64,000 nucleotides of DNA, taken from Candidatus Daviesbacteria bacterium GW2011_GWA1_41_61. GTDB lineage: Bacteria; Patescibacteriota; Microgenomatia; Daviesbacterales; UBA10151. The translations under genes were made by a program, and so were the position numbers. The stretch spans positions 119,424 through 183,423 of the forward strand of contig LCBT01000002.1 of the NCBI GenBank assembly GCA_000997385.1, read 5' to 3'. Positions 56,231-63,190 of this stretch are shown piece after piece. How positions within the stretch are numbered: position 1 is the stretch's first letter; each line of letters starts with the position of its first letter. The notes beneath the pieces are model-generated. The model was given only the letters and a program-made list of their open reading frames with translations, was not told where the DNA came from and ran no database searches.

Positions 56231-58792
56231 TTGGCTGGTTTTATGAAATTCACTAAATTTTTTTCCTGGACATTCTTAGGTTTGGCCTTTGTTACTTTTA
56301 TTTTCTTCTCCGGCATTGTTTCCTTGATTACTGACTGGTGGTGGTACCAAGAAGTAGGGTTTACCGAAATCTTTATCAAATCGCTCAGCGCAAAAATCAT
56401 TGTGGGAGCTCTAGTAGGAATTCTTGCTGCTGCCTTTCTTCTTACCAACTTATCTTTTGCCATCCGTTCAAAAATACCCTGGATGGCAGCCATCCCCGAA
56501 GCCCTAATTGGTACTAATCAACCCCTTAGCCTGAATAGCCGCTTACTTGGAAAGCTCGGCATTATTTTAAGCTGTATTATTGCCCTTTTTATCGGTCTTT
56601 TAGCCTCAAGCAGCTGGCACGAGGTTTTAAAGTTCCTATCAAGCGTGCCATTTGGCCAAAAAGACCCGATATTTGCTGCTGACGTATCTTTTTACGTGTT
56701 TTCCCTGCCTGTTTTTTCTTTGGGGCTTGGCCTTATAAAAACCGTTATTTTAATATCGCTTATCGGTTGCGGCGCAATCTACATTCTGCGGGGCAGCCTC
56801 AATTTATCAAGCCTTTTCCCTAAAATTAACCTCTCCAAATTAACCGGAAAACCTGAAAGTCTGATTATTAGACCTACGAAAGATCAAACCGAACCAAAAG
56901 CCAGACTGCATATCAGCATTCTGCTAGCTCTTTTTCTTACAACCATTGCCGTCGGTACCTATCTTTCTCTCTATAATTTACTTACCAGCCAGAGCGGCCC
57001 GGTGTTTGGCGCGACCTTCACCGATGCCAATGTCATGGTACCGATCCTTCGCGTATCTGTTTTTGTTTACGGGGCGGCTGCCATCCTGGCATTATTTTAT
57101 GGTGTGAGCGGAAAAATTGCGCCTCTTTTTGGAGCAATTTTTTTAACTGTAATAGTCGGGTTTGCTTCTTCAATCATCCCTGGTGTTTTTCAAAAACTGG
57201 TGGTTGCACCCAATGAACTTACCAAAGAAACGCCTTTTATCAAATACAATATTGAGGCCACCAATAAGGCTTATGGTCTGGACAGAGTGGAAGAGCGGGA
57301 AATAGCCGCGGATAAACCGATTACAGCTCCTGATATAGCAGCCAACAATCTGACCATCAAGAATGTCAGACTGTGGGACAGAGCGCCGCTCCTGTCCACT
57401 TTTTCGCAAATCCAGGAGATTAGAACTTACTACGAGTTTACCTCTATTGATAACGATCGTTATACAATCAACAATGAACTGCGCCAAATTATGCTTTCTC
57501 CCCGGGAATTAGCCTCGGACAGCCTGCCGAACAAAAACTGGATTAACGAGCGGCTGACCTTTACTCACGGCTATGGGGTTGCCGGCGGACCAGTGAACCA
57601 GGTTACTCCGGAAGGATTGCCGGTTTTATTTGTCAAAGACTTACCTCCAAAATCCGAAGTCAAAGAACTTGAGGTCACAAGACCGGAGGTTTACTACGGG
57701 GAAATCCCCAATGATTATGTCATAGTCAAAACAAAGTCCAAAGAATTTGATTATCCCAAAGGAGATGAAAATGTGTATACTACATACGGCGGAGTAGGTG
57801 GCGTTGAGATTAACTCACCCCTTCGCCGATTCCTGTATGCGCTGCGCTTTGGTTCCCTCAAATTATTTTTATCTGCTGATGTAACATCGGAGAGCCGTAT
57901 CCTTTATTATCGCAATATAAAAGAAAGAGTTGCTAAAATTGCCCCGTTTCTTGCCTTTGACCGAGACCCATACCTTGTAATCGCTGAAGGTAAAATGTAT
58001 TGGGTACTTGATGCCTATACCTCAACAGACCATTATCCGTATTCTCAACCGCTACCGCTAAATGGCGGTAACGTAAACTATATAAGAAATTCAGTCAAGG
58101 CAGTAATAGACGCTTACAACGGGACAATCAAATTCTATCAAACAGATCCGGATGATCCGATTATCAAAACCTACGCCAAAATTTTCCCCAAAACTTTCCT
58201 TCCACTAACTGAGCTGCCCAAAAGTTTAACTGCTCATTTGCGTTATCCGCAAGATTTGTTCACTCTGCAAACAGCAATCTACACAACCTATCATATGGAT
58301 GATCCGCAGATTTTCTACAACAAAGAGGACCAGTGGGAAATTCCTGCTATTGCCCAGGGGGGCGAGGCACAACCAGCCAAGGTACCGGTAATGGATCCTC
58401 GGCACATGATTATGAAGCTTCCCGGTGAGAAAGCCGAGGAGTATATTTTGATGCTGCCGTTTACCCCGCGGGCAAAAGATAATCTCTCTGCCTGGATGGT
58501 GGCCAGAAATGACGGAGAGCAGTATGGTAAGCTGGTTGTCTACCGCTTCCCCAAGGATAAACTGGTATTTGGTCCCAAACAGATTATCGGCCGAATCAGT
58601 CAGGATGCGCAGATCAGTCAGCAGATTTCCCTTTGGGATCAGGGCGGTTCGGAGGTAATTCAAGGCCCGCTTCTGGTCATTCCAATTGAGGAGTCTTTGG
58701 TCTATGTCCGTCCGCTCTACCTTGAAAAATCCCCGAACTCAAACGGGTCATTGTTGCATATGAGAACAAAATTGCCATGGAAGAAACATTAG
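56231..58792 (+). CDS. UPF0182-family large membrane protein, N-terminal 853 codons up to a frameshift
   Basis: The N-terminus DWWWYQEVGFTEIF has 7 TM helices followed by a large soluble region typical of UPF0182. The reading frame continues in the -1 frame from 58726 (see the next feature). Confidence 0.7.
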   Translation: MAGFMKFTKFFSWTFLGLAFVTFIFFSGIVSLITDWWWYQEVGFTEIFIKSLSAKIIVGALVGILAAAFLLTNLSFAIRSKIPWMAAIPEALIGTNQPLSLNSRLLGKLGIILSCIIALFIGLLASSSWHEVLKFLSSVPFGQKDPIFAADVSFYVFSLPVFSLGLGLIKTVILISLIGCGAIYILRGSLNLSSLFPKINLSKLTGKPESLIIRPTKDQTEPKARLHISILLALFLTTIAVGTYLSLYNLLTSQSGPVFGATFTDANVMVPILRVSVFVYGAAAILALFYGVSGKIAPLFGAIFLTVIVGFASSIIPGVFQKLVVAPNELTKETPFIKYNIEATNKAYGLDRVEEREIAADKPITAPDIAANNLTIKNVRLWDRAPLLSTFSQIQEIRTYYEFTSIDNDRYTINNELRQIMLSPRELASDSLPNKNWINERLTFTHGYGVAGGPVNQVTPEGLPVLFVKDLPPKSEVKELEVTRPEVYYGEIPNDYVIVKTKSKEFDYPKGDENVYTTYGGVGGVEINSPLRRFLYALRFGSLKLFLSADVTSESRILYYRNIKERVAKIAPFLAFDRDPYLVIAEGKMYWVLDAYTSTDHYPYSQPLPLNGGNVNYIRNSVKAVIDAYNGTIKFYQTDPDDPIIKTYAKIFPKTFLPLTELPKSLTAHLRYPQDLFTLQTAIYTTYHMDDPQIFYNKEDQWEIPAIAQGGEAQPAKVPVMDPRHMIMKLPGEKAEEYILMLPFTPRAKDNLSAWMVARNDGEQYGKLVVYRFPKDKLVFGPKQIIGRISQDAQISQQISLWDQGGSEVIQGPLLVIPIEESLVYVRPLYLEKSPNSNGSLLHMRTKLPWKKH

Positions 58793-59028: not shown

Positions 59029-59128
59029 AGCTGCGCTAATACTTTAATTAGTCAATTTGTTTTCAATCATCTTTTCAACTTTTCTTTTTGCTTCCTCTAA
59101 AAGCTCTTTTGATTTTTTCCTCGATATA

Positions 59129-59710
59129 TTATTTTGCATTTTCTAACCAAGTTGCAAAATTGTTATATCCATTTCCGCTTATCCAATCATAACACTGAAC
59201 CCAACTTGACAGCTTGAAACCCTTGCCCCAATACTGTCTATCAAAACTGGCTGTCTTGGACGGCAAATCCTGATAAATCTTCCAATCTGTTCCGTCGTGT
59301 TCGTAATAGGTAATTCTCCTTCCGTCTTCGCTTGTCACAAATCCTAGAAAATCAAACGGATTTTGCCCCTGAAAAAAAGTCTGTCTATTTTTGTCAGGTA
59401 CGCTGTTTATATGAACGCCAAACAATGTATTTCCTCGATCATAACTTTTTAATATTTCGTACCTAACCCAACGCCTGTTCCAAGTATTTGTGCCAATAAG
59501 AACACAAGTAACGGTTGTGTCATCAAGGTTTGAATTTATAAGTCGTTTTACTGAATCGGCACCGTATCTTTTTGCATCTTCCCAAATTGAGGCATCAAAA
59601 AATCCTGCTTCTTGACCATTCGCTTTTGTAAAACCATGATTTCTTACAACATTGGCACGAAATGTTTTTACATCGTCATAATGAAAACTGAAGAATACCT
59701 GCTTTGCCAT
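59129..59710 (-). CDS. TIR-like domain protein (ThsB-like, DUF1863-type)
   Basis: From the internal Met it reads MAKQVFFSFHYDDVKTFRANVVRNHG ... FDASIWEDAK ... VTCVLIGTNTWNRRWVRYEI ... GVHIN ... NPFDFLG. This closely resembles Thoeris ThsB-type TIR proteins, as recalled from memory. The ATG lies 2 nt after the stop of the upstream TM-protein gene. Confidence 0.6.
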   Translation of the reverse strand: MAKQVFFSFHYDDVKTFRANVVRNHGFTKANGQEAGFFDASIWEDAKRYGADSVKRLINSNLDDTTVTCVLIGTNTWNRRWVRYEILKSYDRGNTLFGVHINSVPDKNRQTFFQGQNPFDFLGFVTSEDGRRITYYEHDGTDWKIYQDLPSKTASFDRQYWGKGFKLSSWVQCYDWISGNGYNNFATWLENAK

Positions 59711-59712
59711 AT

Positions 59713-60114
59713 TTAGTTTATTAAATACACAATAAAAAGCATGATAAAAATTAGGGATAGATAAAACCACAAAAGAGTCAGTGAAGACATTGAGCTTAAC
59801 CAACTGTTGCGCTTGTTCTTTTTATACTTCCGCGTGTCCATGGAAAAATCTATTTCTTTTTCATCAAGTTTTCTGACATCATCATATAAATCACGGAATA
59901 ATCGCTCTTGAGAAAGAAAATAACCGTCCAAAACCCAGAACATAATAACCGGAAAATAAGCAATGAAAATGTACTTCGGATTTGCATCCTTTGCAGATAA
60001 AGCAAAAAGTGCGGCAATCAATGTAATCGCCCATCCTTTCAGAAAAAACGAATTGCCTGCCATTTTATTGATGACTCCTTGAATGAACTCAAGATGTTTT
60101 CGCTTATTTTCCAT
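59713..60114 (-). CDS. Small 3-TM membrane protein coupled to the TIR gene (candidate effector, SLATT-like?)
   Basis: From MENKRKHLEF there are three hydrophobic helices (GWAITLIAALFALSA; IFIAYFPVIMFWVLDGYFL; LTLLWFYLSLIFIMLFIVYLI) and a charged loop. There are 2-nt gaps to both neighbours. No SIR2/SLOG/Macro domain is present. Confidence 0.45.
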   Translation of the reverse strand: MENKRKHLEFIQGVINKMAGNSFFLKGWAITLIAALFALSAKDANPKYIFIAYFPVIMFWVLDGYFLSQERLFRDLYDDVRKLDEKEIDFSMDTRKYKKNKRNSWLSSMSSLTLLWFYLSLIFIMLFIVYLIN

Positions 60115-60116
60115 AC

Positions 60117-60914
60117 TCAAATAATTACTGTTGCTTTTTCGTACAATATTGGTAAACAATCCTGCCTCATTCGAAATTTTGTGCCATGATTGTGCCCCGT
60201 GCGTGCGTCAAAATCCACAAGGATTTTGCCTTCTTCTAATGCTTTCAAAAATCCTTCAAAGCTGAATTTTTGCAACATCATTACTTTTGTGTAGTGATAA
60301 TATTCCTTTTTCCCTTCAATTTTTACTTCAGCCTGAACATAAAAAGTATTAAGTAATTTTGTTCCAGCTTTATGATCCAGATCATCAAAGCCCCAATATG
60401 GTTGTGGATTAAGTTCATCTAGTCCAACACGCTTTTTGACAGATTCAAGCCATTCTTTATGCCTTTTATCAACGCTTTCTGCATCGAAAGAAATTAAAAT
60501 TTTCCGCTCCTTACGGTCAATTACTACCATGAAACCACGATCGCTTCTTGCCAGCCCATGGATAGTAAGGCGAAAACTCATCTCGCCTTTTTGATATTTT
60601 TTACCGTCTTCTTGATGCGTCCAGCCGTATCCAGGCAAAAGGACTTGGGGGACGAAACGAACTGCTCTAGGTGAAGGCTCGGTATGAAAAAGGGTTGTAA
60701 GAGATGAAGAATTGAGTCGTTGCGCTTTTAATTCCCACTCCGCAGCATTTGGAATTGGTAAATTATTTTCTTTAATATCAAGTAAATCTTCGAGTGTGTT
60801 CCCTATCCCACCAGAGTTATCTCGCCGGGCGTTCGTAACCCAACCCATAGCGGCAATTTCTTTAAGTTTATCAATTAATGTTTGCTTTGAATAAATAATA
60901 GGTTTATCTGTCAT
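60117..60914 (-). CDS. Type II restriction endonuclease, MvaI/BcnI family
   Basis: GNTLEDLLDIKENNLPIPNAAEWELKAQRLNSSSLTTLFHTEP parallels the BcnI/MvaI N-terminal catalytic region (ENN ... GE.ELK ... NLTLFH..P). It is about 265 aa and immediately downstream of an N4-cytosine methyltransferase. Confidence 0.7.
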   Translation of the reverse strand: MTDKPIIYSKQTLIDKLKEIAAMGWVTNARRDNSGGIGNTLEDLLDIKENNLPIPNAAEWELKAQRLNSSSLTTLFHTEPSPRAVRFVPQVLLPGYGWTHQEDGKKYQKGEMSFRLTIHGLARSDRGFMVVIDRKERKILISFDAESVDKRHKEWLESVKKRVGLDELNPQPYWGFDDLDHKAGTKLLNTFYVQAEVKIEGKKEYYHYTKVMMLQKFSFEGFLKALEEGKILVDFDARTGHNHGTKFRMRQDCLPILYEKATVII

Positions 60915-60920
60915 TGTTAT

Positions 60921-61730
60921 TTACAAAAGACTAATTTGAGATTGGTCTATTCTAATCCTTTCTTCAGCCATATCGCAATATTCTGGCGAGATATCTATCC
61001 CAATATAATTTCGTTTGAAGTTTAGAGCGGATATTGCAGTTGTGCCAGATCCCATAAAAGGATCAAGGATAACTTTTGCATTTGTTGACGAGATAATTCG
61101 ATCAATTAATTTGACAGGGAAAGCGGCAGGGTGTTCGTTTTTCATCTCTTGTGTAAATTCCCAAACATCACCGTAAGCATTGGCTTTTGGTGCAAGTTTA
61201 AACCTCGGCTTTGCAATAAGATAAATTACCTCATAGGTGGGAAGAAAGTACCCTGCATTAAAATTAAGACCTCCTTTCCTCTTCCAAATAATAATTTGCC
61301 TGACAGGAAATCCAGCAACGATATCTTGACGATCTTGTAACAAGCCATCTTGAACACGCCATTTATGATTGTAGAAAATCGCGCCATCTTCTGGAATTAT
61401 TCTCATCATTTCATTCAAACACTCTTTTTGCCATTTAACATATCCATCATGGGGCATACAATCGTCGTGATGTGTGTATCCATTTTGGAGTGCAGCATTT
61501 GCCCACTTTCCGCCACGCCCATCTTTCATGCCGTTACCAGTTGAATTTTTGAGATTATACGGTGGTGAGGTAACAACTAAATCAACCTTTCCATCAGAGA
61601 TTTGCTTCATTATCTCGACAGCATCACCACATAGAATTCGATTTATAAAATCTTCCGGATATAAAAGCTTTTTAACACTCTTTTTGTTAGACTGATAGTC
61701 TAATCCAGTTTTGTTTATACCTTGTGGCAT
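60921..61730 (-). CDS. DNA N4-cytosine (or N6-adenine) methyltransferase, beta class, SPPY motif
   Basis: Motif IV DLVVTSPPYN precedes motif I DPFMGSGTT. The likely start is MPQGINK at 61730, 7 nt after the LexA-1 stop. The listed ORF extends to 61763. Confidence 0.8.
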   Translation of the reverse strand: MPQGINKTGLDYQSNKKSVKKLLYPEDFINRILCGDAVEIMKQISDGKVDLVVTSPPYNLKNSTGNGMKDGRGGKWANAALQNGYTHHDDCMPHDGYVKWQKECLNEMMRIIPEDGAIFYNHKWRVQDGLLQDRQDIVAGFPVRQIIIWKRKGGLNFNAGYFLPTYEVIYLIAKPRFKLAPKANAYGDVWEFTQEMKNEHPAAFPVKLIDRIISSTNAKVILDPFMGSGTTAISALNFKRNYIGIDISPEYCDMAEERIRIDQSQISLL

Positions 61731-61737
61731 TATAATA

Positions 61738-62355
61738 TTATCCATTGATTTTACTCTTCCCAAGTATACCTACAACCTTACCTAATAATCTAGTCTCAGG
61801 GTATATGGGAATATTTCTATATTTTGGGTTCTCCGGTTTCAGATAAACCTTACCATCAGCATGAATAAATCTTTTAACAGTAGTCTCGCCATCCCAACGG
61901 GCTAAAACTATGTCACCGTTTTTAAAGTCTTTTGCATACCTTACTAAAACAGCATCATCATCCTGTATTCCAGCACCAATCATAGAGTCTCCTTTTACTT
62001 TTACTACAAATAAATCTACTGTTGTTTCAATATCGCCTGCTGCTTTCCATTCAATATCTTCAAACGCTTGCATATATGCACCAGCTGCGCTGATTCCTAC
62101 ATATGGCATTATTGGTTGCGTGTCAAGAGCCTCAAATCCTTTTTGCAGAATCTTTAGTCCTCGTGCCATACCTTCTTCCTTCTTAATAAATCCCTTATTT
62201 TCTAATAAGCGCAAAAGGTCTAAAACTGATTGATTTGAAGAAACATTTAGTTCTTCGCGAAGATCTGCGAGTGTTGGGGGAAAACCTGAATCTTTGAGAG
62301 ATCGATAGATAGCTCTGAGCGTCTGTTTTTGCCGGGGGGTTAATTTACTTTTCAT
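61738..62355 (-). CDS. lexA: LexA-type S24 repressor, paralog 1
   Basis: LexA winged-helix N-terminus (LTPRQKQTLRAIYRSL ... FPPTLADLREELNVSSNQSV), an Ala-Gly cleavage site (SAAGAY), Ser (GDSM) and Lys (VKRF) of the S24 peptidase. The true ATG is 62353-62355. The listed ORF starts at a TTG inside the promoter. Confidence 0.8.
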   Translation of the reverse strand: MKSKLTPRQKQTLRAIYRSLKDSGFPPTLADLREELNVSSNQSVLDLLRLLENKGFIKKEEGMARGLKILQKGFEALDTQPIMPYVGISAAGAYMQAFEDIEWKAAGDIETTVDLFVVKVKGDSMIGAGIQDDDAVLVRYAKDFKNGDIVLARWDGETTVKRFIHADGKVYLKPENPKYRNIPIYPETRLLGKVVGILGKSKING

Positions 62356-62362
62356 AGAGTAA

Positions 62363-62391
62363 AATATACTGACTATATAGTCAGTTGTCAA
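62363..62391 (-). promoter_or_regulatory. Promoter TTGACA-N17-TATATT with the 18-bp palindrome ACTGACTATATAGTCAGT filling the spacer (putative LexA operator)
   Basis: -35 is rc of 62386-62391, the palindrome is at 62368-62385, and -10 is rc of 62363-62368. The ATG is 7 nt downstream, so the transcript is leaderless or nearly so. Confidence 0.6.
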
Positions 62392-62498
62392 GATAGCAAA
62401 TTATACAGCTTTCTTTGAGCCCGTAAACTGCCTCTTCATTTTTGAATATCTTTCCAATCACATCTTCGGCTTTATTTGGTTTTATAGTTGGCATAAGT

Positions 62499-63137
62499 TT
62501 AAGAAATCATCCTCCATTGACCATTTTTCAAAACAGAAATAACTTTACCCTCTAAAACCACGTCTTCTGTAAAGTAAATAATTTCATACTTTGGATTTTC
62601 CGGTTTTAAATAAAGATATGGCGGTTTATCTTCCGAAATAAAACGTTTTACCATAGACTCATCTCCGACTTTTGCCAGTACAACATCTCCCGAAACGAAT
62701 TCTTTTTGACTTTTTACCAATACTTTGTCCCCATCATCTATTCCCGCATTGATCATCGAGTCGCCTGAGATTTGAAGAAGAAAAACATTATCTTGAAGCA
62801 TTGCAACCTGAGAAGAAAGAATTTGCCATTCACCGGAAATTTCAATGGCTTGAAGAGGAACGCCTGCGGATGTAGCACCCAGGAAGGGAGCAATTGGTGG
62901 TTTGCCGAGTACCTCGTAGCCAAGAGGCAATATCGTTATGCTTCGCGCTTGGGATTCGTTGCGCTTAATGAGCTTTTTCTTTTCCAGTTTCGCTAATAGA
63001 TCAATCACTGACTGATTGGAGGAGACGTTTAGTTGCTCTCGCAATTCTTCAAAAGTCGGAGGATAACCCGTACTTATAATATACCTGTAAAGGTTTTCCA
63101 GTAATTCCTTCTGCCTTTCCGTGATGGAAGAAACCAT
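62499..63137 (-). CDS. lexA: LexA-type S24 repressor, paralog 2
   Basis: ITERQKELLENLYRYI ... YPPTFEELREQLNVSSNQSV, an Ala-Gly site (TSAGVP), GDSM Ser and VKRF Lys. Confidence 0.8.
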   Translation of the reverse strand: MVSSITERQKELLENLYRYIISTGYPPTFEELREQLNVSSNQSVIDLLAKLEKKKLIKRNESQARSITILPLGYEVLGKPPIAPFLGATSAGVPLQAIEISGEWQILSSQVAMLQDNVFLLQISGDSMINAGIDDGDKVLVKSQKEFVSGDVVLAKVGDESMVKRFISEDKPPYLYLKPENPKYEIIYFTEDVVLEGKVISVLKNGQWRMIS

Positions 63138-63146
63138 AGCAATTCA

Positions 63147-63175
63147 AATATACCCGACTATTTAGTCGGGGTCAA
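63147..63175 (-). promoter_or_regulatory. Promoter TTGACC-N17-TATATT with the 18-bp palindrome CCCGACTA(AA/TT)TAGTCGGG in the spacer (putative second LexA operator)
   Basis: The palindrome is at 63153-63170. It shares the core GACTA-NN-TAGTC and the same promoter architecture as the site upstream of paralog 1. Confidence 0.6.
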
Positions 63176-63190
63176 GAGGCAATTGTAACC

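Follow-up and report, generated by a model that had tools for sequence, protein, structure and literature searches.

A restriction cassette headed by LexA as the probable basis of a mosaic defence operon in a Candidatus Daviesbacteria genome

The 64-kb stretch of DNA analysed here (the window) belongs to the genome of Candidatus Daviesbacteria bacterium GW2011_GWA1_41_61, an uncultured groundwater organism of the candidate phyla radiation (CPR)/Patescibacteria. The list of its open reading frames (ORFs) contains a minus-strand island (59129-63137) of six co-oriented ORFs which code, in this order, for two LexA proteins (LexA-2, then LexA-1), a DNA methyltransferase and a restriction endonuclease forming a restriction-modification (R-M) pair, a small membrane protein and a TIR protein of the ThsB type. 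The explanation that we favour overall, and judge to be probable, is that a restriction cassette headed by LexA forms the base of this island, which would be a mosaic defence operon working by the mechanism proposed below; that it is a mosaic and an autoregulated operon we regard as very likely. Every protein of the island belongs to a known family. What appears to be novel is the position of LexA at the head of exchangeable restriction cassettes, together with a family of LexA::methyltransferase fusions. In the literature searched, we found neither LexA as an invariant head of restriction cassettes nor a LexA::methyltransferase family; a study of the SOS network of Patescibacteria (Sanchez-Osuna et al. 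2017), which lay outside that search, may cover part of the matter.

LexA control of a restriction module, as proposed in the initial annotation of this DNA, turned out to be a recurrent association with a shared promoter-operator. Relatives of LexA-1 at 58-73% identity are abundant in Microgenomates. Three of them were inspected, and all were found behind a TTGACA-CTGACTATTTAGTCAG-TA promoter with restriction genes immediately 3': the cargo of two is an N4/N6 methylase with an MvaI/BcnI nuclease, and that of the third is a 650-aa HSDR_N_2 + N6_Mtase + Eco57I protein with an S subunit (BcgI/type IIG-like). A protein-based scan of species-representative genomes yielded 12 loci of this clade, distributed among Daviesbacteria, Curtissbacteria, Woesebacteria, Shapirobacteria and Berkelbacteria. 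The lexA-1-type arrangement (TTGACA-CTGAC-N6-GTCAG-TA), i.e. a CTGAC-N6-GTCAG palindrome between the -35 box and a TA-rich -10 box, is present 5' of all 12 of these lexA genes, which had been found by protein similarity. A methyltransferase or R-M gene adjoins lexA at each of the 10 species-representative loci with enough downstream DNA; the cargo there is of the MvaI type, BcgI/IIG-like, of the PstI/BsuBI type or a 527-aa N6_N4 enzyme.

Metagenomes were scanned with the exact 18-mer operator, i.e. for perfect sites only, and 80 of the 91 matching stretches were examined. Thirty-one of these 80 lie directly 5' of lexA in the same TTGAC-flush promoter arrangement (at one of them, lexA has a non-canonical start codon), and a methylase or R-M gene was present at every metagenome lexA locus with room downstream (22 of 22). 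The other 49 stretches were heterogeneous (TetR-type operators, repeats, GC contents of 23-66%) and had no flush -35 box. For a combined count, LexA sequences were collapsed at 90% identity, giving 33 lineages of which 25 were informative; restriction cargo is located directly 3' of lexA in all 25. This cargo is IIG-like in 17 lineages, of the MvaI type in 3, of the PstI type in 1, another N6_N4 enzyme in 2, type I-like M+S in 1 and a relic in 1.

The two functions are also found within a single polypeptide. In another Patescibacteria genome, a 510-aa protein (L096 4068-5600, minus strand) consists of a complete LexA and an N6_N4 methyltransferase; it keeps the DNA-binding domain, the Ala-Gly site, the Ser and the Lys, and the S24 domain sits between the DNA-binding domain and the methyltransferase. 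Its gene adjoins a gene for a TaqI-type nuclease with a helix-turn-helix (HTH) controller and is divergent from an operon coding for GIY-YIG, membrane and TIR proteins. There are at least 120 clusters of such LexA-S24-methyltransferase fusions, and the best 120 database relatives (P0241-P0360) are all full-length, of the same architecture and about 507 aa long. The fusions are hosted by Minisyncoccales, Nealsonbacteria, Jorgensenbacteria and Kaiserbacteria, and their name at NCBI is 'LexA'. The link between LexA and restriction methylases thus takes the form of an apparent operon in Microgenomates and of a fusion in Parcubacteria-type lineages.

The promoters of the two lexA genes of the window are the best promoter matches on the minus strand in a promoter scan. 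In full, they read TTGACA-ACTGACTATATAGTCAG-TATATT for lexA-1 and TTGACC-CCGACTAAATAGTCGGG-TATATT for lexA-2. The palindromes previously noticed at these genes are real, and each sits exactly in the 17-nt spacer of its near-consensus promoter. That of lexA-1 has a 16-nt form, CTGACTATATAGTCAG, at 62369-62384. The core GACTANNTAGTC occurs twice in the window, both times in the lexA promoters. At the sequence level, each lexA gene carries what is expected of an autoregulated gene, namely a palindromic box in its own promoter. The lexA-2 operator departs symmetrically from the clade consensus, with one substitution repeated in each half-site (CCGAC...GTCGG versus CTGAC...GTCAG); as a matter of speculation, a symmetric change of this kind could tune or separate the two repressors, e.g. 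through differing affinity.

Both repressors contain PF01726 and PF00717 (winged-helix DNA-binding and S24 peptidase domains) and score above the TIGR00498 cutoff of 110.95 bits (144 bits for LexA-2, 152 bits for LexA-1). They are 47% identical to each other, and LexA-1, the paralog that was searched against solved LexA structures, matched them at E = 1e-26. In a 28-sequence alignment composed of both window paralogs and 26 relatives, the A91-G92 cleavage site, S124 (GDSM) and K161 (LexA-1 numbering) are invariant, and the dyad of nucleophilic Ser and general-base Lys is intact in LexA-1 and LexA-2. Given an intact cleavage site and Ser/Lys dyad, RecA-stimulated gating of the operon by DNA damage is plausible, at a level of confidence somewhat short of even. 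The recognition-helix regions of the two proteins are near-identical (SSNQSV[LI]D).

As regards the layout of the island, the initial annotation was accurate: the six co-oriented genes are present in the order and at the coordinates that it gave, its domain calls were all upheld by Pfam, NCBIfam and PADLOC, and the genes are indeed packed like an operon behind LexA-type repressors that have operators (Table 1). The start codons were picked by reading the sequence. The two lexA genes are separated by 143 nt. The lexA-1 stop and the methyltransferase start overlap by 8 nt (ATGGATAA), or are 7 nt apart if the second ATG is used instead, and the remaining intergenic gaps are of 6 nt (methyltransferase-endonuclease), 2 nt (endonuclease-membrane protein) and 2 nt (membrane protein-TIR). 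A sequence scan predicted no terminators within the cluster besides the operator palindromes themselves. We infer, as the simplest reading, that the genes from lexA-1 to the TIR gene would form a single transcription unit, with read-through from lexA-2 being possible.

Table 1. Genes, regulatory sites and relic of the island, with their positions in the 64-kb window
Feature	Position	Strand	Remarks
lexA-2 promoter, TTGACC-17-TATATT	63147-63175	minus	sequence reading; promoter scan 10/12
lexA-2 operator, palindrome CCGACTAAATAGTCGG	63154-63169	minus	occupies the -35/-10 spacer
lexA-2	62499-63137	minus	212 aa, complete LexA
Relic of a BcgI/type IIG-like restriction-methylase N-terminus, 37-codon ORF	62381-62494	minus	profile E = 5e-6
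lexA-1 promoter, TTGACA-17-TATATT	62363-62391	minus	sequence reading; promoter scan 11/12
lexA-1 operator, perfect palindrome ACTGACTATATAGTCAGT	62368-62385	minus	occupies the -35/-10 spacer
lexA-1	61738-62355	minus	205 aa, complete LexA; first gene of the predicted five-gene operon
DNA methyltransferase, beta-class N4/N6 type, SPPY motif	60921-61745	minus	274 aa
MvaI/BcnI-family type II restriction endonuclease	60117-60914	minus	265 aa
Membrane protein (TM; PDC-M50A)	59713-60114	minus	133 aa, three predicted membrane helices
ThsB-type TIR protein (PDC-M50B / ThsB1)	59129-59710	minus	193 aa

The mosaic nature of the island was apparent from its distribution and from its junctions. An identical TIR protein was found on 23 contigs, all of which carry the same six genes and are 99.9% identical to the window and are therefore assigned to the same population; since the identical-protein contigs all came from one population, the six-gene order was rejected as comparative evidence. 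All six genes together were found in no other species. The idea of six genes conserved as one system was therefore abandoned: their order is limited to one population, and the two parts of the island occur apart, the lexA-methyltransferase-endonuclease part being present without the TM and TIR genes in three other species (L013/L019, L014/L018 and L017). Homology of the window to other species at the DNA level starts at 62395-62415; with the species that share its methyltransferase and endonuclease genes, it runs from the -35 box (62395-62402) exactly to the endonuclease stop codon. The left boundary of the transferable cassette is therefore the lexA-1 promoter. LexAs that are 86-89% identical head different cargo (IIG-like in L016, MvaI type in L017-19), as do the LexAs of L020 and L021, which are 85% identical and precede PstI-type and IIG-like cargo, respectively. 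The methyltransferase and endonuclease of the window share 84-88% identity with their orthologs from three further species, and these orthologs accompany a LexA that is only 66-69% identical. The genes 5' of lexA differ in every genome compared.

A relic between the two lexA genes points to an earlier cassette at the same place. It starts 4 nt 3' of the lexA-2 stop codon and breaks off at the lexA-1 promoter. When a profile of 16 lexA-linked type IIG-like N-termini was run against 1304 segments of the window, the relic was the only match (the next best segment had E = 1.3), and its best matches in a short-peptide BLAST search were lexA-linked type IIG-like genes. Thus, lexA-2 once headed its own IIG-like gene, of which 32 codons are left. 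LexAs are in tandem here because the 5' end of this IIG-like gene subsequently received the lexA-1 cassette (promoter, lexA-1, methyltransferase, endonuclease, TM and TIR genes). Another remnant is located at L017 9226-9300, directly after the stop codon of the orthologous MvaI-like endonuclease gene, and corresponds to a decayed segment of about 75 nt from the 5' end of the TM gene. The endonuclease-TM junction therefore predates the species of the window, and a block of methyltransferase, endonuclease and TM (and perhaps TIR) genes was once present in a second species and lost its TM-TIR part there.

The initial annotation had also proposed that the island is an insertion of foreign DNA, as judged from two degraded flanking genes. 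A mobile origin is supported by the relic between the lexA genes; the argument from flanking pseudogenes fails on both sides. The apparently frameshifted UPF0182 gene (plus strand) lacks 13 nt (AAGGCAGCAACAG) at about position 58724, a segment that further assemblies from this population contain; the deletion, confined to this assembly, splits a 932-aa UPF0182 protein into ORFs of 853 and 83 aa and reflects either an error of assembly or variation between strains. The other assemblies encode the intact 932-aa protein, so this flank is not an insertion scar. For the supposed degraded paralog of a secreted-protein family 5' of lexA-2, only one 21-aa tblastx match was obtained elsewhere in the window. 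The genes called within the flanking 10 kb include no integrase, and no tRNA was found nearby. The 100-nt gap between the TIR gene and the convergent UPF0182 gene contains a 31-codon ORF (window positions 59029-59128) that overlaps the TIR stop codon. Two assemblies (L001 and L006) list this ORF as a gene, and it might be another relic.

Some other features of lexA-restriction loci were recorded. A LexA-2-like gene at about L148 5390-6050 (minus strand) has the standard promoter-operator; it was missed by ORF calling and apparently starts with ATA or ATT. DUF2130 proteins with an N-terminal CxxC zinc-ribbon-like segment are encoded beside lexA-restriction loci in three species (L017 5758-6897, L020 4107-5255 and L026 9384-10481). 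In two lexA-IIG cassettes (L142 7415-7963 and L106 1616-2260), an extra gene directly follows the restriction-methylase gene; one of these codes for a ClpP-like protease and the other for a DUF4145 protein.

The R-M pair of the window is of a standard type. The methyltransferase matched PF01555 (E = 2e-40) and the PADLOC model MTase_II PDLC03305 (E = 4e-119), and the endonuclease matched PF15515 (E = 4e-66) and the PADLOC model REase_II (E = 2.5e-81). Among PDB entries, the endonuclease matched R.MvaI (2OA9, E = 7e-18 with phmmer) and R.BcnI (E = 1.5e-7). The defining arrangement of type II MvaI/BcnI systems, i.e. an MvaI_BcnI endonuclease domain encoded beside a cognate methyltransferase, is present. 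R.MvaI and R.BcnI, which are paired with N4-cytosine methyltransferases, share the endonuclease fold family and the gene pair with the window; the similarity is remote, and the endonuclease of the window has Asn for the first Asp. Around residues 52-62, the window endonuclease reads PNAAEWELK where MvaI has PDFHDIEIK and BcnI GDLGEFELK, the E-x-K part being kept.

The last two genes are adjacent in the order A-B of a PADLOC candidate system, PDC-M50, and match both of its models, PDC-M50A for the TM protein (E = 5.7e-55) and PDC-M50B for the TIR protein (E = 9.4e-56). The TIR protein also matched PF08937 (E = 2e-20) and PADLOC ThsB1 (E = 1e-52), and aligned over its full length with ThsB of Bacillus cereus (PDB 6LHY/9B7D; 52% identity, E = 1e-61); the alignment covers the motif WVRYEI with the catalytic Glu. 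The AlphaFold model of the TM protein is all-helical (predicted local distance difference test score, pLDDT, of 89.7), three hydrophobic membrane-spanning stretches can be read from its sequence, and a Foldseek search of the PDB returned no match below E = 1. Its family comprises 5020 clusters at 50% identity and spans many phyla as well as 140 plasmids, including IncC plasmids of Klebsiella and E. coli; the plasmid homologs are annotated as hypothetical at NCBI. In 11 of 11 other contexts examined, the TM gene is followed at once by one or two ThsB-type TIR genes, and in none of these 11 is LexA upstream. The pair occurs without LexA or R-M genes in L099, L196 and L198 and on plasmids of E. 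coli, Vibrio and Priestia, and it is often located within defence islands. It was also found directly behind a co-oriented type II R-M pair in two more, unrelated contexts: L197 (HinfI type) and L101 (unknown type). As to a viral origin of the TM family, only 2 weak loci were seen in IMG/VR.

These features are those of a Thoeris system in the generic sense, i.e. a ThsB-type TIR gene with the catalytic Glu beside an effector gene in a recurring unit. Type I Thoeris has a SIR2-SLOG ThsA effector, and a Pfam scan found neither a SIR2 nor a SLOG domain in the cluster: the TIR protein resembles that of the type I system of B. cereus MSX-D12 at full length, whereas its partner is a 133-aa membrane protein instead of a SIR2-SLOG ThsA. 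A parallel in gene content is type V Thoeris, in which TIRs clustering with type I ThsB make 3' cyclic ADP-ribose (3'cADPR), which activates ThsF, a three-helix DUF2270 protein (bioRxiv 10.64898/2025.12.03.692087); Thoeris types with small membrane effectors were validated in that December 2025 preprint. The window shares with type V the two-gene unit composed of a small three-helix membrane effector and ThsB and a TIR that clusters with type I ThsB, but the type V effector is a DUF2270 protein and the TM protein of the window falls below the PF10028 cutoff. Weak DUF2270 matches were obtained for 8 of 134 representatives of the TM family (best E = 1.4e-5), so that a distant relationship is possible. 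We therefore class the pair as 'Thoeris-like, PDC-M50' rather than type V; it appears to be a widespread autonomous two-gene module, with the TM protein presumably acting as a Thoeris-type membrane effector. Such a role fits the fusion of members of the TM family to SLOG, a domain of nucleotide-signal sensors, which the Pfam scan of the 134 representatives detected in one member (cluster 2) and one member (cluster 3). No paper naming PDC-M50 was found, and it is known as a computational candidate. Both genes of the window match it; here, the pair no longer has an upstream region of its own and is set 2 nt behind a restriction gene. Some members of the TM family (P0378, P0381, P0423 and other representatives) reach 350-380 aa and carry the TM module C-terminally, and weak matches tie the family to DUF2270, DUF3278 and 8xMP.

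The mechanism that we propose for the LexA-headed mosaic operon is as follows. A strong promoter with a palindrome of 16-18 bp in its spacer would drive lexA-1, the methyltransferase and endonuclease genes and a piggy-backed Thoeris-like pair, this cassette having been inserted about 100 nt downstream of an older lexA-2 with a similar promoter-operator of its own. LexA dimers bound to the palindrome would occlude RNA polymerase, and the resulting autoregulation would keep expression of the methylase, the nuclease and the abortive-infection genes low and buffered, much as a C protein does. RecA assembled on single-stranded DNA (originating from damage, degradation of phage DNA or self-restriction) would trigger self-cleavage of LexA and thereby derepress the whole operon. 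The restriction, methylation and Thoeris components would rise together, and the modules would then act independently in known ways: the R-M pair would cut unmodified CCNGG-type sites, and ThsB would sense infection and make a cyclic ADP-ribose-type signal on which the membrane protein would stop the infected cell. From the similarity to B. cereus ThsB, our best guess for this signal is 3'cADPR.

A number of observations count against this explanation. The evidence for co-transcription consists of gene spacing, and the promoter scan detected weak internal promoter-like sites, e.g. at 60949-60978 just 5' of the endonuclease gene. No recA gene was found within the 64-kb window. Beyond those of lexA genes, no further promoter-type operator targets were seen among the 80 of 91 stretches examined in the scan for perfect 18-mers; this lack fits a dedicated regulator better than an SOS master regulator. 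The TM protein scores 12.7 bits on PF10028 (DUF2270/ThsF; E = 0.098, cutoff 25) and has no significant Pfam family. In the endonuclease and its three orthologs, Asn occupies the position of what we take to be the first catalytic Asp of MvaI/BcnI-type enzymes, and nuclease activity is therefore not certain. Finally, the window shows no depletion of CCWGG/CCSGG (observed/expected 1.03-1.09), a comparison that is uninformative.

Three rival explanations were weighed against the LexA-headed mosaic operon. The first of them would make the island one integrated, new six-gene defence system whose parts depend on one another mechanistically. The tight packing and single orientation of the genes speak in its favour, as do the TM remnant of L017, which makes the endonuclease-TM junction older than the species, and the position of TM-TIR pairs behind type II R-M genes in L197 and L101. 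These points are outweighed in our view by the restriction of the six-gene order to one population, by the existence of each part without the other (lexA-methyltransferase-endonuclease without TM-TIR in L013/L019, L014/L018 and L017; TM-TIR without LexA or R-M in L099, L196, L198 and plasmids) and by the fact that each module is a recognised stand-alone unit; this is a very improbable explanation and the least likely of the three. LexA might, on the other hand, be an ordinary SOS repressor with no role in defence, the 3' flank of its gene being a tolerated landing site where restriction cassettes build up because they can borrow a reliable promoter. Groups of similar LexAs do track taxonomy (Daviesbacteria L016-19, Curtissbacteria L020-21, Woesebacteria L023/25), cargo has been exchanged under near-identical LexAs, a single lexA of the clade was seen per genome with the exception of the window, and both proteins pass the LexA equivalog model. 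However, neutral insertion would hardly produce a linkage of 25 out of 25 spread over more than five types of cargo, and even LexAs with 84-90% identity have different upstream neighbourhoods, so that lexA itself seems to move with the cargo. The independent LexA::methyltransferase fusions of other CPR lineages argue for functional coupling, and the metagenome scan for perfect sites found no more promoter-type copies of the operator. We consider an ordinary SOS repressor with hitch-hiking cargo unlikely.

The remaining rival keeps LexA as a regulator and leaves DNA damage out: LexA would be a homeostatic autorepressor analogous to a C protein, with S24 serving for dimerisation. The operator overlaps the promoter and the repressor is encoded first in the operon, which is classic negative autoregulation, R-M systems generally need such control (PMC3874152), and the promoter-type 18-mer was seen next to lexA only (31 of the 80 stretches examined). 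On the opposite side, the Ala-Gly, Ser and Lys residues are invariant in the 28 aligned members, which is unexpected if self-cleavage is unused, and in the fusion family the S24 domain has been kept whole between the DNA-binding and methyltransferase parts. That LexA acts in this capacity only seems to us improbable.

The position of LexA in these cassettes can be compared with several known forms of control. SsoII/EcoRII-type methyltransferases have an N-terminal HTH and regulate their own expression. Like them, the CPR fusions carry a repressor DNA-binding domain on the methyltransferase itself, but the fused module is a complete LexA, and in the window the two are separate, translationally coupled genes. 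Toxic or mobile modules under SOS/LexA control include tisB, symE, yafNO, colicins and integron integrases, and CapH/CapP of CBASS are damage-responsive. Such modules likewise consist of potentially self-harmful genes silenced by a damage-sensitive repressor; they are controlled in trans by a chromosomal LexA with scattered targets, whereas in the window the lexA gene opens the defence cassette and moves along with interchangeable cargo. Membership of some defence genes in LexA regulons has been noted (bioRxiv 10.64898/2025.12.14.694197). There is also a likeness to type II R-M systems controlled by C proteins (PvuII, Esp1396I, Kpn2I, Csp231I), in which a small regulator encoded at the head binds a palindrome over its own promoter and sets the expression of methylase and nuclease (PMC3874152). 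The regulator gene at the head and the palindrome in its own promoter are shared features. The regulator differs, being of the Xre HTH type in C-protein systems and a full LexA with a self-cleaving S24 domain, predicted to be a pure repressor, in the window; no Xre/HTH_3-type controller gene with a C-box is present in the cluster. Unlike C proteins, LexA heads at least 5 R-M architectures. A review of R-M regulation mentions LexA for toxin-antitoxin systems only (PMC3874152).

The six-gene island should be seen as a mosaic of known modules and is not to be presented as a new defence system. What reaches beyond this locus is the role of LexA. We suggest tentatively, and with less confidence than we attach to the operon itself, that LexA, a self-cleaving and damage-sensitive repressor, has been recruited in Microgenomates and other CPR as a standard mobile head of R-M cassettes (with Thoeris cargo as well in the present case) which gates innate immunity by RecA/LexA in these CRISPR-poor bacteria, and that the 3' end of lexA is a site of cassette exchange. 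CPR/Patescibacteria have tiny genomes and reportedly rely largely on restriction over CRISPR. R-M systems are known to be regulated by C proteins, by autoregulating methylases and by antisense RNAs. If the present interpretation is true, a self-cleaving LexA as obligatory first gene would represent a fourth solution to this problem, and the LexA::methyltransferase fusions point in the same direction; the sensing of DNA damage would then be tied directly to the level of restriction and abortive infection.

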